From the IMG/VR virus record IMGVR_UViG_2541047680_000005: DNA of 12,296 nt. One strand, written 5' to 3'. The position numbers and the translations under genes are program-made. Each line of letters starts with the position of its first letter. The stretch's first letter is position 1. Below the pieces are notes generated by a model. The model saw only the letters and a list, made by a program, of their open reading frames with translations, ran no database searches and was not told the DNA's origin. The stretch comes from a virus (taxonomy: Duplodnaviria > Heunggongvirae > Uroviricota > Caudoviricetes). Of the stretch, positions 2,883 through 12,296 are shown piece by piece.

Positions 2883-3135
2883 ACAAGTTATGTTCAGGAA
2901 ACCGTCGAAGCCAGAATTAAGGTATTCGGGGGTAAGAAATGAATATGTTATCTGGTGTCCAACTTGTGGTTACAGGACACGACCAGATAGTAATAAGCAG
3001 TCTGTAATTGCCGATTGGTATTTATCAAATCAGCCAGGTAATAAGCATATAGAAAATCTTTGGATTAAGCGTTACTTGGAAATCAGAGAGGGTGCGACCG
3101 TGGTCGCACAAGAAAATGAAAATAACGCCATTTAA
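2815..3135 (+). CDS. Small Cys-rich (CxC...CxxC) putative zinc-ribbon protein
   Basis: Track ORF. Contains FCLC and CPTCGY. Start is uncertain: ATG 2815 overlaps the upstream gene by 68 nt, and the alternative ATG at 2890 lacks an SD and would drop the first Cys pair. The last 15 codons include one copy of the 18-bp palindrome. Confidence 0.4.
   Translation: MRRRSAVKSSNAIGQEVPFCLCKQVMFRKPSKPELRYSGVRNEYVIWCPTCGYRTRPDSNKQSVIADWYLSNQPGNKHIENLWIKRYLEIREGATVVAQENENNAI
3092..3109. repeat. 18-bp palindrome copy 2 (GTGCGACCGTGGTCGCAC)
   Basis: Perfect 8-bp arms with GT centre; at the 3' end of ORF 2815..3135, where it again encodes ATVVAQ. Confidence 0.6.
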
Positions 3136-6238: not shown

Positions 6239-6526
6239 TTAATAAACAGCGCGAATATCGATGGTTGCGCCGCAGGCATGAGCATATTTAGCCAAAGTTT
6301 TCATACTTGCCCCTAAAGGATTGCTTTCCAGGCGGCTGATGGCTGACGGTCGCAACCCCATTCGTTCAGCCAGAGCTGATTTCGTTAAACCTGCTCTTTC
6401 CCTCATTTCGTATAACATTTCGACCATCTCCAGCTCTTTGTCGGCCTCTTCATATCCTTTGACGGCTTCTGGAGTGTTGAGGAGTTTTTCTTTTACTTCG
6501 TTAAACGGGATGCCTTTCGCTTTCAT
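6239..6526 (-). CDS. HigA-like antitoxin (XRE-family HTH)
   Basis: 95 aa, with HTH segment LTKSALAERMGLRPSAISRLE. The start overlaps the toxin stop (ATGA at 6526) and the gene lies downstream of the toxin, the HigBA-type order. Confidence 0.8.
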   Translation of the reverse strand: MKAKGIPFNEVKEKLLNTPEAVKGYEEADKELEMVEMLYEMRERAGLTKSALAERMGLRPSAISRLESNPLGASMKTLAKYAHACGATIDIRAVY

Positions 6527-6837
6527 CAGTTCATCTCCTTCAGGCGAGTTCTGGCGATTTCGATAGCCTTCACCGGTGTTTTCTGTGTCTTTTTTACAAA
6601 TGCATGCAATAGATAAATTTCGTTACCAGTCGCGTAGGCGTACAGCGTTCTTGCGATGTTTTTATCCCCTACTCGTAGTTCAAAAAGCCCTCCACCTATT
6701 ACACGGCTATGGGGCATCTTCAGTTTGTTGCCTTCCTTCTCCAGTCGCTCAATTAATCTGGTCATGCGACCTCGCAAATCATCTGGTAGTTCAAGCAGTT
6801 CATCCAGTGCTGCAGGGTGGGTTATCACGTTAAACAT
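6526..6837 (-). CDS. RelE/ParE-superfamily toxin of the HigB / phage Gp49-like group
   Basis: 103 aa; size, toxin-first order and overall sequence resemble the Gp49-like (DUF891) killer proteins as I recall them; the family is named after phage N15 gp49. Confidence 0.75.
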   Translation of the reverse strand: MFNVITHPAALDELLELPDDLRGRMTRLIERLEKEGNKLKMPHSRVIGGGLFELRVGDKNIARTLYAYATGNEIYLLHAFVKKTQKTPVKAIEIARTRLKEMN

Positions 6838-7470: not shown

Positions 7471-7488
7471 GTGCGACCACGGTCGCAC
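7471..7488. repeat. 18-bp palindrome copy 3 (GTGCGACCACGGTCGCAC, arms extend to 10 bp)
   Basis: Begins 6 bp after the stop of gene 7238..7465, at the head of the structured noncoding region. Confidence 0.6.
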
Positions 7489-7573
7489 AGCACAAAAACG
7501 AAAAAGCTTGGCAAAATTACGGTTTTTAGTTATTGTTTTGTTAAGTTGGGTTTTTTGTACCCAACAGCCAACA

Positions 7574-7597
7574 AGCCGCCTTTATGGCGGTTTTTTT
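7574..7597 (+). terminator. Intrinsic terminator (short GC stem CCGCC / GGCGG, loop TTTAT, then T7)
   Basis: Stem 7576..7580 / 7586..7590 followed by TTTTTTT at 7591..7597; downstream of the small-gene pair and upstream of the methyltransferase. Confidence 0.5.
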
Positions 7598-8904: not shown

Positions 8905-9177
8905 ATGAAGATGGATGAACGATACAGCAGCGCATCTTATGGTAGTGCTGGTCTTACTGCGTTCTTTGCCAGCCTGTCATTGCAGGATTGGGGCTTCATT
9001 ATCGGTGTCGCGTTCAGCATTATCCTCGGTGTACTTACATACCGGCTCAATAAACGCGAGCAGATGAAGCGCACGAAGATATTGCAGGACATATTGGATA
9101 AAACTGATGCCAATAATATTTCCGCCACGGCGATGGTTATTGGTGAATTGGGAAAGAGAGCACCGAAGGAAATATGA
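8905..9177 (+). CDS. Class II (pinholin-like) holin with dual-start motif
   Basis: 90 aa. Begins MKMDERY (Met1-Lys2-Met3, the classic antiholin/holin dual start). Two hydrophobic segments, [12 protein letters not shown] and [18 protein letters not shown], then a charged C-terminal tail. SD GAGGT 7 nt upstream. Directly precedes a SAR endolysin and resembles phage 21 S21 as I recall it. Confidence 0.8.
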
Positions 9178-9674
9178 TGCAGTCATCATTACGCAAAGCT
9201 GTCGCAACAGCTATTGGTGGCGGGGCTATTGCCATAGCATCTGTGCTCATCTCTGGTCCGAGCGGCAACGATGGTCTGGAAGGTGTGAGACATAACCCCT
9301 ACAAAGACATCGTTGGTGTATGGACTGTATGTTACGGGCATACAGGAAAAGACATTATGCTCGGTAAAACGTATACCGAAGCAGAATGCAAAGCTCTCCT
9401 GAATAAAGACCTTGCTACTGTCGCCAGACAAATTAACCCGTACATCAAAGTCGATATACCGGAAACAACGCGTGGTGCTCTTTACTCGTTCGTTTACAAC
9501 GTGGGTGCAGGCAATTTCAGAACATCGACACTTCTTCGCAAAATCAACCAGGGCGATATCAAAGGTGCATGTGATCAACTACGTCGCTGGACATATGCTG
9601 GCGGTAAGCAATGGAAAGGGCTGATGACTCGCCGTGAGATTGAGCGTGAAGTCTGTTTGTGGGGGCAGCAATGA
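9174..9674 (+). CDS. SAR endolysin (T4-lysozyme-like, GH24)
   Basis: N-terminal Gly/Ala-rich weakly hydrophobic segment [20 protein letters not shown] (signal-arrest-release type). Catalytic E-x8-D-x5-T spacing in [17 protein letters not shown]. Start overlaps the holin stop. Confidence 0.9.
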
Positions 9675-10138
9675 GCAGAGTAACCGCAATTATCTCCGCA
9701 CTGGTTATCTGCATCATCGTCTGCCTGTCGTGGGCTGTTAATCATTACCGTGATAACGCCATCGCCTACAAAGAACAGCGTGATAAAAAAGTCAGTGAGC
9801 TGAAGCAGGCGACCGCCACCATCGCTGACATGCAGCAGCGTCAGCGTGATGTTGCTGCGCTCGATGCAAAATACACGAAGGAGTTGGCTGATGCGAAAGC
9901 TGAAAATGATGCTCTTCGGCGCAAGCTTGATAATGGTGGTCGGGTGCTCGTCAAAGGAAAATGCTCTGTGCCATCCTCAGCCGAAACCTCCAGCGCCTCC
10001 GGCATGGGCAATGATGCCACCGTCGAACTCTCTCCAGTTGCTGGACGAAACGTTCTCGGTATCCGGGACGGAATCATCAGAGACCAGACAGCACTGAGAA
10101 CGCTTCAGGAATACATCAAGACGCAATGCCCGAATTAA
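9671..10138 (+). CDS. Rz: Rz-like inner-membrane spanin
   Basis: ATG 9671 overlaps the endolysin stop, with GGGGG 5 nt upstream. N-terminal TM helix [18 protein letters not shown], then a coiled-coil-like periplasmic domain. Contains the Rz1 gene in the +1 frame. Confidence 0.85.
9891..10097 (+). CDS. Rz1: Rz1-like outer-membrane lipoprotein spanin, embedded in Rz
   Basis: [44 protein letters not shown]: lipobox VVGC and a Pro-rich mature region, closely resembling lambda Rz1 as I recall it (MLKLKMML...VVVGCTSK...PPPPPAW). AAGGAG 7 nt upstream of the ATG. Confidence 0.8.
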
Positions 10139-10179
10139 TCCCTCTGTATCAAAAACGAACTCAATTTGTTGGATAGTGA

Positions 10180-10491
10180 ATGAAAATTTATATTGCCGGG
10201 CCAATGACTGGATATGAGAACTTTAATCGTGACGCCTTTAATAAAGAGGCAGATCGTTTGTCACGACATGGTCACTCTGTCTTGAATCCAGCCACTTTGC
10301 CTAATGGTCTGACACAACGTGAATACATGGATATTTGCTTTGCAATGCTTCGTTGTGCTGATGCTATTTTGATGCTTCCTGGCTGGAAAGCGTCTGCTGG
10401 AGCAACTGCTGAGTATCATTACGCATACAAGATGGAGATGCCGGTATTCACTACGCTGAATTACCCGCCAGCTTGTTCCTCTGTAGCATAA
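10180..10491 (+). CDS. DUF4406-like protein (nucleoside 2-deoxyribosyltransferase-like fold)
   Basis: 103 aa beginning MKIYIAGPMTGYENFNRDAF, the N-terminal signature of this phage-associated family as I recall it. Function unknown. Confidence 0.6.
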   Translation: MKIYIAGPMTGYENFNRDAFNKEADRLSRHGHSVLNPATLPNGLTQREYMDICFAMLRCADAILMLPGWKASAGATAEYHYAYKMEMPVFTTLNYPPACSSVA

Positions 10492-10510
10492 AAATCTCTT
10501 TGTTTCTCGT

Positions 10511-10528
10511 GTGCGACCGTGGTCGCAC
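10511..10528. repeat. 18-bp palindrome copy 4 (GTGCGACCGTGGTCGCAC)
   Basis: 20 bp after the stop of the DUF4406-like gene. Confidence 0.6.
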
Positions 10529-10730
10529 ATTAAATACCGCGCTGCATCGTCGCCGTATTTCCGCATTAACCATGACCGTAGCCCGACGGGGAACTCCTCT
10601 GCGCGAGTGTGCGGAAATAATCAAAAACGATGCACACCGGGTTTTTACCGCGCTAATGATTCGCGGGTTTGTCCCTCATGCTCGCCAGTCCTGTGCGAGG
10701 GTGGAAGAAACAGGGCATGTATTCAGGAGC

Positions 10731-10748
10731 GTGCGACCGTGGTCGCAC
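10731..10748. repeat. 18-bp palindrome copy 5 (GTGCGACCGTGGTCGCAC)
   Basis: 24 bp upstream of the start codon of gene 10772..11632; with copy 4 it brackets a ~200-bp noncoding stretch. Confidence 0.6.
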
Positions 10749-10771
10749 GGTATCTTTGTCAGGAGGTTTTG

Positions 10772-11632
10772 ATGAAAGAGTTGCAAAAAATTAATTCAAT
10801 AATGGAAAGATTAAGTGCTCTTGAGCGTAAGCTGGACGATTGTGGAAAGCTGTGTGTTGAAAAGCAAAATGAGCTTTACCGGGAATTTTTTACAATCGTA
10901 AGTGAGCTGATGCCAATTGTTAATAACTGCCTGATGACATCCAGATTTTTTAATGTCGATGCTACTACATCCAGAAAATTTTCTGTGAAAATTCAAGAAA
11001 GAGTTTCTGGTAGTGTGACAAGAGAGATGGCTGAACAGTTGGTGGCAATGAGCAATAAAACAAAAAGAAAAAAGGCATTGCTTGTAACAGCAAATCAGCT
11101 TTCAGGGCGCGTTGACTTTCAGGTCAGACAGGGTGGGCGTGTACTGGTAAATGATGCGTTCGTTGGACGTAGCTTTAGTCCTTACTCGATAAAATATGAT
11201 GTTGATGCAGATGATCAGGATATCAGCATTTCCTGGAAATCTGAGACAGCAGGGATTGTATTAACAGCAGAGTTGTTGAGTGATGATAAAAATGATGTCC
11301 AGCATCATTTGGACGAAAAGAATCATATTTCTGAAATTTGTATGAAGCCACGCAGCGGAATGACTTTATTGTCACGCACTCTTGCTGCTGGCTTTTCTGC
11401 ACCGGAAAAACGTGTGCTTCTGGTAGTGCCTGAAGATGCAGATATTCGACCACTGAATGGCTGTGATGTTATTAGTGCAAAAACATTGCATACCCGCGTC
11501 ATTCCTGTACCGGATGTGGTCATTATTGATGATGTTGAGAAATGCAAGTCTGTTTCCTCAACTGCCACAATCAAGCGAATTTTACGTTGTAGCACGTCGG
11601 CTGTTGTATTCCGGAAGCAGTTACATAACTAA
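10772..11632 (+). CDS. Hypothetical protein (286 aa), candidate cargo gene
   Basis: Strong SD AGGAGG 5 nt before ATG 10772. The track ORF 10511..11632 starts at a GTG inside palindrome copy 4 and is rejected. N-terminal coiled-coil-like segment; no recognisable catalytic motif. The region looks more AT-rich than the rest of the window by eye. Confidence 0.7.
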   Translation: MKELQKINSIMERLSALERKLDDCGKLCVEKQNELYREFFTIVSELMPIVNNCLMTSRFFNVDATTSRKFSVKIQERVSGSVTREMAEQLVAMSNKTKRKKALLVTANQLSGRVDFQVRQGGRVLVNDAFVGRSFSPYSIKYDVDADDQDISISWKSETAGIVLTAELLSDDKNDVQHHLDEKNHISEICMKPRSGMTLLSRTLAAGFSAPEKRVLLVVPEDADIRPLNGCDVISAKTLHTRVIPVPDVVIIDDVEKCKSVSSTATIKRILRCSTSAVVFRKQLHN

Positions 11633-11755
11633 CAAGTTTTGTTTTGCAGAACATCCTCAACTAAAAGCTTATAGAAAGAGAGCCTGAGATATTTTTTCTG
11701 TCTCTCGTAGTTGTTTATTTTTCTCGAACAGGCTTACAACTTACAGGATATAAAC

Positions 11756-12205
11756 ATGCAAGAAGAAGCAAATAAAATTCTTGTTGATTTATTGAAGAAG
11801 GCCAGCGATGGAATTGATTCCGCCATTGCATTCAGTCAGGCTCAGATTCCGGATGTTGTTCATCAGTTGCTGGTATGGAATATGGTTGATAGCCTGATTA
11901 AAACATTAATAGCCATTTCAACAATCCCGCTGGTTTTCTGGTTTATGAAAAAACAGTACCAAAAAGTTGAAATTGGTATATTCGATAATGAAGGATGGTC
12001 ATGGGAGAAGGGAAAGCCTAAATACAAACCGACTATGATTTGGGAAAGTAACGGTGAGATTAGTTTTCTTATCTTACCATTAGCAGCAGTTTTTGTTCTG
12101 TGGGTAAGTTTTATTATTGCTGTAGTAACCAATATGACATGGTTAAAAATCTGGTTGGCACCTAAGTTATATCTAATCGAATACGCAGCATCACTAATTA
12201 AATAG
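11756..12205 (+). CDS. Hypothetical membrane protein (149 aa, two predicted TM helices)
   Basis: ATG 11756 with AGGA 7 nt upstream (track start 11711 is TTG). TM segments LIKTLIAISTIPLVFWFM and ISFLILPLAAVFVLWVSFIIAVV. Visibly AT-rich. Confidence 0.6.
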   Translation: MQEEANKILVDLLKKASDGIDSAIAFSQAQIPDVVHQLLVWNMVDSLIKTLIAISTIPLVFWFMKKQYQKVEIGIFDNEGWSWEKGKPKYKPTMIWESNGEISFLILPLAAVFVLWVSFIIAVVTNMTWLKIWLAPKLYLIEYAASLIK

Positions 12206-12249
12206 TCCATTACAAAAGCCATTCGCTACTGAGTGCTGATGAATCCCCT

Positions 12250-12271
12250 AATGATTTTGGTAAAAATCATT
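12250..12271. repeat. AT-rich palindrome AATGATTTT-GGTA-AAAATCATT
   Basis: 9-bp perfect arms read directly, 45 bp after the stop of the last gene. Confidence 0.45.
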
Positions 12272-12296
12272 AAGTTAAGGTAGATACACATCTTGT

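Follow-up and report, generated by a model that had tools for sequence, protein, structure and literature searches.

The closest described counterparts of the sites analysed here are IR1-IR4 of the phage-plasmid N15, four SopB-binding inverted repeats which are relatives of F sopC and which are dispersed rather than clustered. One lies within repA, the next follows Q, the third precedes the late promoter and the last comes behind the lysis segment. On the N15 genome (L006), IR1 is located at 33479 inside gene 37, IR2 at 35930 after gene 40, IR3 at 41124 and IR4 at 45561 after gene 58, where it is annotated as a putative terminator. IR3 stands 38 bp ahead of the annotated late-promoter -35, and the -35/-10 elements occupy 41162-41190. 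Silencing of nearby genes by ParB/SopB is established for F and P1 with the protein in excess; in N15, facilitation of late expression reportedly proceeds through IR2 and IR3.

Two further groups of lambdoid systems bear on the DNA that the sites enclose at the present locus. The lambdoid cis-acting RNAs (sib, put) and the prophage sRNAs of Rfam are, as the element described below would be, phage-encoded folded RNAs with a conserved position in the operon, and the element is found in Stx phages and in lambda. The element differs from them in its location: it follows the lysis genes, not a promoter, int or the Q/PR' region. Its likeness to the lambda sib retroregulator and the HK022 put antitermination RNAs is an analogy that we assume. 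The prophage sRNAs of the literature (anti-sRNAs, Tree 2014; Pas sRNAs) also sit near Q/PR' and not after the lysis genes. The moron or cargo cassettes of lambdoid phages resemble our locus in that a variable two-gene cassette is placed between the lysis and packaging modules, with conserved flanks that are common to differing phages, and in that a recombinant without the cassette exists. Here, however, the flanks are a direct repeat of a candidate structured noncoding element, and a partition site is present at the 5' edge of the cassette.

We compared these systems with a window of 12,296 nucleotides, meaning the whole stretch of DNA that was analysed. It presents a known arrangement in a new variant, namely N15-family sites with a candidate new RNA motif inside that belongs to no curated RNA family.

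The window and its replicon

Bases 9000-12296 of the window match E. coli 'plasmids' of ~46 kb and Escherichia phage PhiR46_1 at 99.8-100%. The gene layout of these relatives is of the N15 type (protelomerase, a 1331-aa RepA, cB/cro/Q, a RelE-type toxin pair, methylase, holin-lysozyme-Rz and DUF4406), with lambda-like terminase, head and tail genes followed by sopA/sopB on the 3' side of the DUF4406 region. The order repA, cB, cro, Q, methylase, lysis genes, DUF4406 is shared by the window and its relatives. Judged by its sequence, the window comes from an N15-like linear phage-plasmid of E. coli, of which it represents the right arm from the 5' end of repA to the cargo genes ahead of cos. The plasmid copy in the window is broken between cargo and cos because of an IS10-like insertion at 12236. 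In the relatives, cargo gene 2 is followed by a hairpin, AAAAGCCATTCGCTACTGAGTGGCTTT, and it is into this hairpin that the IS10-like element has inserted. A RelE/ParE toxin gene and an HTH antitoxin gene (6239-6837, minus strand) lie in the middle of the early/late region, in the manner of N15 genes 48/49. The landmarks of the late region are as follows.

7508-7593, plus strand: p52-like late promoter TTGGCA-17-TATTGT (7508-7536) and terminator-like hairpin (7573-7593), from the promoter/terminator scan and the N15 layout
10761-10774, plus strand: Shine-Dalgarno AGGAGG (10761-10766) and ATG (10772) of cargo gene 1, from the sequence and the relatives' annotation
10772-12205, plus strand: two-gene cargo cassette, encoding 286 aa (10772-11632) and 149 aa (11756-12205)
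12236-12296, plus strand: end of an IS10-like element (IS4 family, ISVsa5), which interrupts the plasmid after the cargo cassette

The interval under study, 10492-10771, fills the whole space from the stop codon of the DUF4406 gene (10180-10491) to the ATG of cargo gene 1 at 10772.

The palindromes as N15-type SopB sites

Two palindromes of the sequence GTGCGACCGTGGTCGCAC are present in the interval. They are identical at 18 of 18 positions, including the asymmetric central GT, lie 220 bp apart from start to start and bracket 202 bp in which there is no credible ORF. The identical pair around a stretch with no convincing ORF, which the initial annotation had described, is thereby confirmed. 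Allowing up to one mismatch, five copies of the motif are found in the window (at 649, 3092, 7471, 10511 and 10731), as against 0.00 expected from 200 dinucleotide-preserving shuffles. We refer to them by their N15 equivalents.

649-666, no strand: IR1 equivalent inside repA, with one mismatch
3092-3109, no strand: IR2 equivalent, 209 bp downstream of Q (2172-2882)
7471-7488, no strand: IR3 equivalent, just 5' of the late promoter-like site
10511-10528, no strand: IR4a, N15-type SopB-binding inverted repeat with the core of N15 IR1-IR4; predicted RNA hairpin of about -14 kcal/mol
10731-10748, no strand: IR4b, second identical inverted repeat, 24 nt before the cargo start codon; predicted RNA hairpin of about -15 kcal/mol

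The earlier suggestion that these palindromes might be ParB-type sites is borne out by the comparison with N15. The core GTGCGACC-NN-GGTCGCAC is matched without mismatch at both 10511-10528 and 10731-10748, and the oligonucleotides used for IR1-IR4 in N15 centromere arrays carry exactly this core (PMC7205306). The 16 specified bases (GTGCGACCNNGGTCGCAC), the dispersed arrangement and the positions relative to repA, Q, the late promoter and the lysis segment are all the same as in N15, and the N15 IR4 is syntenic with the pair at 10511/10731. The 99.8%-identical plasmid NZ_CP101200.1 carries genes for a protelomerase, for SopA and for a ParB/SopB with 74% identity to N15 SopB; sopB is thus located on a near-identical relative, outside the window. 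The near-identical full plasmid has exactly the five sites of the window and none besides. Because of the core identity, the synteny with N15 and the cognate SopB on the relative, we take the pair to be a doubled IR4. Both palindromes are accordingly N15-type centromere SopB sites as far as sequence, synteny and cognate protein define them, and SopB is inferred to bind at IR4a and IR4b. IR4a and IR4b would most likely load SopB for partition as IR1-IR3 do, adding to the dispersed centromere.

The palindromes as such are known biology. The new detail is a fifth site in a lineage of N15-like E. coli plasmids: where N15 has four sites, the window has five, and the site at the IR4 position is doubled, 220 bp apart, around foreign (lambdoid) DNA. 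N15 itself has its IR4 between a cytosine methylase gene and gene 59 and is devoid of the lambdoid element.

If transcribed, all of the repeats are predicted to form RNA hairpins of -12 to -16 kcal/mol. IR4b received a terminator-like score, with an 8-bp stem containing 6 GC pairs and the tail GUAUCUUUGU, in which the U-tract is interrupted and poor; the tail scored behind the hairpin is GTATCTTTGT.

N15-like relatives are 93-95% identical overall, and in them the unit of repeat, element and repeat is almost invariant. The repeats of N15-like loci are perfect or deviate at the outermost base only, whereas the copies in integrase-type lambdoids are often decayed, being truncated or mutated. This pattern agrees with the sites being under selection only in the presence of SopB; it also fits an exchange of repeat-tagged cassettes between plasmid-prophages and integrating phages. 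Single IR-like palindromes occur beside the element or beside cargo genes in integrating lambdoids that lack a Sop system (L253, which is phage 2B8, and contigs L013, L016, L029, L071, L093 and L120). Phage 2B8, an ordinary integrase/N/O/P phage, has one such copy (L253 48654-48671), GTGCAACCGTGGTTGCAC, where a symmetric double change keeps the palindrome intact.

Coding potential of the interval

The stretch was initially described as noncoding, and the comparison with homologues agrees. Two ORFs cross the interval, 10473-10772 with a TTG start and 10511-11632 with a GTG start inside IR4a, and neither has a Pfam match. Their frames are broken in the homologues by 1-nt indels between clades (CTCC-TCTG versus CTCCTTCTG, a +1/-1 pair in lambda, and a G-run of variable length). 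Since these indels separate the clades, no reading frame is conserved across the element.

The only PHROG signal, obtained with ORF 10511-10771, is a 23-residue match (E = 3e-8) to phrog_6954, a family labelled 'Rz-like spanin'. Its counterpart is an 81-aa ORF lying over the element in 933W (L248 1992-2237); the match in the window falls at 10580-10648. A small protein of this family might be proposed for the stretch on account of this match, of the 81-aa ORF that covers the 933W element and of the hypothetical proteins annotated at the element in some records. However, the match is partial (profile positions 18-40 of 81), the frame shifts between clades and meets a stop in lambda and the majority type, the window copy has neither a Shine-Dalgarno sequence nor an ATG and has no Pfam match, and the sequence of the ORF, rich in Cys and Arg, does not look like that of a protein. 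Since lambda and the majority type do not keep its frame open, the phrog_6954 family is probably spurious, and the 'Rz-like spanin' labels that RefSeq gives at the element are, like the family, probably artefacts. In frame conservation, start signal and family match alike, the interval 10492-10771 does not behave as protein-coding DNA, and a small protein is almost certainly not what the stretch encodes.

A lambdoid element between the palindromes

The DNA between the two palindromes is a copy of an element common to lambdoid phages.

10539-10727, plus strand: copy A of the lambdoid noncoding element, candidate structured RNA, matching over 400 phage records at 85-96% identity

A BLAST search of phage genomes with 10529-10729 returned 424-428 records, every match being on the plus strand, and these are mostly Stx-converting and other lambdoid phages of Escherichia and Shigella. 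By megablast the element is present in 3181 of 5426 complete E. coli genomes (~59%), in up to six copies per genome, and the PGAP annotation under these copies consists of nothing or of hypothetical ORFs only. A covariance model of the element, R1, matches 10539-10645 at 130 bits; in N15 it found no diverged copy.

In lambda, 933W, POCJ13, Stx1_14744, mEp460 and 2B8, the element is always located between the lysis genes, or the morons behind them, and cos/terminase. The lambda copy (match 46869-46974) lies between bor and lambdap78, the 933W copy between bor and the small terminase gene, the Stx1_14744 copy starts 12 nt after Rz, and the copies of mEp460 and 2B8 are 100-300 bp from the right cohesive end. 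The distance to the terminase genes varies from ~0.2 to 1.7 kb, which counts against the reading preferred below. The orientation of the phage copies is that of late transcription, whatever the packaging system.

The boundaries of the element were analysed in 120 IMG/VR contigs. The left junction of homology is sharp at 10539 in nearly every case, and at least six unrelated upstream sequences are joined to it. The right end falls at 10607, 10644, 10717 or ~10745. The short forms and lambda retain a downstream hairpin of the P6 type described below (GTCCGGT...GGAAGAA ACCGGAC).

A few further occurrences were recorded. The 5' domain of the element is present on pVM01 (L254 1501-1596) and on about 600 IncF/ColV plasmids, ~170 bp from iss, the plasmid homologue of lambda bor; this copy is evidently a lambdoid fragment carried with iss. 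When genome_contigs was scanned for the pattern GACGGGGAACTN{2,4}TCTGC, nearly all matches were due to chance. Three were real, lambda-like and ~82% identical, and are probably lambda DNA in assemblies. A link between ylcI and the element was considered and rejected, ylcI being on the opposite strand and adjoining the element with an overlap of only 7 nt.

A predicted conserved fold on the plus strand

The element can be drawn as two domains of helices on the plus strand.

10544-10633, plus strand: 5' domain, with P1 (10544-10550/10627-10633) and P2 (10556-10565/10610-10619)
Within 10544-10633, plus strand: inner helices of the 5' domain, P3 (10577-10581/10599-10603) and P4 (10582-10584/10589-10591)
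10639-10716, plus strand: 3' domain, with a GGG/CCC helix (10639-10641/10673-10675) and P5 (10648-10652/10662-10666)
10688-10694/10710-10716, plus strand: P6 hairpin of the 3' domain, with the conserved loop motif GGAAGAA
10681-10685 with 10695-10699, plus strand: possible pseudoknot in the 3' domain; pair 49/69 is CG in 17 sequences and GU in 6

Alignments of 34 distinct sequences for the 5' domain (A1) and of 24 sequences for the 3' domain (A2) were used to evaluate these helices. In the four nested helices of the 5' domain, 98.1% of the cells of A1 are paired; with the partners slid, the share does not exceed 64%. Three pairs of this domain are changed on both sides, a number reached by only one of 500 shuffles. 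Single pairs show series of states, namely C-G / U.G / U-A at pair 7/95 and C-G / U.G / G-C at pair 26/74. In the POCJ13-type clade, the apical hairpin is precisely deleted while the stem beneath it is retained. The 3' domain is paired in 96.8% of the cells of A2, with pair 60/82 of P6 being UA in 16, GC in 5 and GU in 2 sequences, but two-sided changes of its pairs are not significantly numerous (65/500). For the full element, RNAalifold recovers the same helices de novo, at -53.1 on the plus strand versus -33.6 on the minus strand.

The kind of mismatch that the helices tolerate also depends on the strand. Read in the plus sense, G.U occurs at 18 pair positions (113 cells) and A.C, the equivalent of a G.U pair in the opposite strand, at 6 (9 cells). 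This asymmetry argues for an RNA of the plus strand, in the sense of late transcription, and against a constraint on duplex DNA. The element varies little (88-91% mean column identity; effective sequence number 1.12 in the covariance model) and therefore the covariation rests on few independent events. The energy of single-sequence folding is unremarkable (z = -1.1), and it is not significant on either strand. Compensatory and wobble changes together with strand asymmetry, as looked for in structured RNAs generally, are thus both found, at low diversity and more weakly in the 3' domain. In the IncF-plasmid copy beside iss, outside the late operon, the pairing has partly decayed.

Known RNA families do not account for the fold. 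Rfam 15 gave nothing in the interval at E <= 1 in a search of the whole window, and with lax filters over 10480-10790 only two noise matches (12-14 bits) at E <= 10. Rfam 15 includes the prophage sRNAs AgvB, AsxR, Esr41 and STnc100, and none of them matches the element. ARAGORN predicted no tRNA or tmRNA, and a limited literature search returned no description of an RNA at the position of the element. The initial annotation had offered a small RNA as an alternative for this stretch. What stands of it is the conserved plus-strand fold, which makes an RNA plausible; what does not stand is an RNA with a promoter of its own or a convincing terminator.

The cargo cassette and a second copy of the element

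The cargo proteins belong to phrog_2571 and phrog_3054, phage families of unknown function. They have no match in Pfam or PADLOC, PHROGs gave no functional lead, and the scan found no promoter belonging to the cassette. The gene for the 149-aa protein is also seen directly 5' of the element in lambdoid contigs such as L029.

Near-identical relatives of the window carry a second copy of the element (copy B), ~92% identical to copy A, located ~120 bp after the cargo cassette and ~100 bp before cos, behind an upstream flank typical of lambdoid phages. In the window, the place of copy B is cut off by the IS10-like insertion.

19562-19733 of L007: copy B
6008-6178 of L010: copy B
2540-2711 of L117: hybrid of copies A and B
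10742-10853 of L015: truncated copy B

Because copy B lies just ahead of cos, IR4b and the two cargo genes are placed between direct repeats. In L015, copy B is truncated and followed by a third inverted repeat that adjoins cos. In L117, the order is DUF4406, IR4a, element and cos; the 5' part of the element is that of copy A and its 3' part that of copy B, and both IR4b and the cargo are absent. L117 is either the expected product of recombination between the repeats or else the ancestral state. In L093, L111 and 2B8, a lambdoid flank is followed by the element, an inverted repeat and then other cargo or cos. Homologous recombination within the element probably brought the cassette in and can remove it again. 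Cargo cassettes would in this way be exchanged between plasmid-prophages and integrating lambdoids, and such an exchange would explain the stray relics of partition sites in phages that have no partition system.

Transcription and possible function of the element

The initial annotation had envisaged that the palindromes, if they were of ParB type and flanked a promoter region, could silence or insulate the downstream cassette. The sites are indeed of genuine SopB type, IR4b lies 24 nt before the cargo start codon, the 220-bp spacing corresponds to ~21 helical turns and, as noted above, silencing is known for F and P1 with excess protein; bridging of the two sites by SopB, or its spreading over a promoter between them, may be considered. 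However, within 10492-10771 neither strand shows a sigma-70-like site in the promoter/terminator scan, and homology starts abruptly at 10539 with unrelated DNA upstream. The DNA between the sites is a phage-wide element that occurs also without palindromes, and the arrangement of element plus inverted repeat is also found in integrase phages without a Sop system. The spacing would allow bridging, but what sets it is how long the pre-existing element is. The N15 precedent, too, points the other way as far as its title tells, since the title of the N15 Sop paper speaks of facilitation of late gene expression (reference 39 in PMC11652158). Silencing or insulation of the cargo by SopB therefore finds no support here, and we consider it very unlikely. 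An independent sRNA gene, which would start near IR4a, end at the IR4b hairpin and give a stable trans-acting RNA of ~200-240 nt, has several points in its favour: the plus-strand fold is conserved, IR4b has a terminator-like score, hairpins at both ends would protect the RNA, and the A-rich single strand AAUAAUCAAAAAC resembles the ARN motifs of Hfq. Against such a gene, no promoter-like site is present upstream and the upstream flanks of the carriers are unrelated; in most carriers the element is followed by neither a hairpin nor a U-tract, IR4b being there only in the lineage of the window and followed by a poor U-tract; and no known prophage sRNA in Rfam matches. Given flanks that vary so from carrier to carrier, the element has no conserved promoter. 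What would mark an Hfq-type sRNA gene, a promoter and a Rho-independent terminator belonging to it, is not convincingly present in the interval. Having no promoter of its own, the element is most simply part of the late transcript, and an independent sRNA gene looks less fitting and is, in our estimate, unlikely.

It is also conceivable that the element is conserved as DNA, either as a linker for module recombination or as a protein site linked to packaging, with the fold being incidental. Its sharp homology boundaries adjoin many different neighbours, it lies 100-300 bp from cos in many phages, the cargo is enclosed by direct repeats of it and a recombinant form occurs. Constraint at this level would not lead one to expect the strand asymmetry of the mismatches (18 versus 6 positions; 113 versus 9 cells), nor compensatory changes in helices whose strands lie ~45-80 nt apart. 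Moreover, the element accompanies three unrelated terminase/cos systems and is 1.5 kb from cos in lambda, and the copy on IncF plasmids beside iss has lost pairing outside the late operon. We regard conservation purely as DNA as decidedly unlikely.

The locus as a whole is probably best explained by SopB sites, a captured RNA element of the late transcript and a recombination-borne cassette. The element would be a captured copy of the lambdoid noncoding element, 189 bp between SopB sites, at a module junction in the late operon. The function that we prefer for it would be that of a cis-acting 'punctuation' element for processing or stability of the transcript where lysis genes give way to packaging genes; the next option would be a processed RNA that acts in trans. 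More tentatively, and with somewhat less than even confidence, it may be hypothesized that 10539-10727 represents an undescribed family of functional structured RNAs that marks the lysis/packaging boundary of the lambdoid late transcript, and that its enclosure by SopB sites in N15-like plasmids could couple assembly of the partition complex to expression of the RNA and the cargo. The element is discrete and sharp-edged, it is common to lambda, Stx-converting phages and ~59% of complete E. coli genomes, and it has so far been unannotated or hidden under doubtful small ORFs, and it bears the signature of a plus-strand RNA fold. If real, it would mean that the best-studied of all phage late operons has an RNA feature that went unrecognised, and lambda offers a direct test of this.

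The late transcript of the window would start at the p52-like promoter (7508-7536), after IR3, in a Q-dependent manner, and would cross the element. By analogy with N15 and lambda biology, polymerase modified by Q would read through to it. The counterpart of 7471-7593 in N15 has the same order as the window: first IR3, then the annotated -35/-10 of the late promoter ahead of gene 52, then its terminator. Hairpins of this region also give weak Rfam matches at noise level (AgrB, ctRNA_pGA1).
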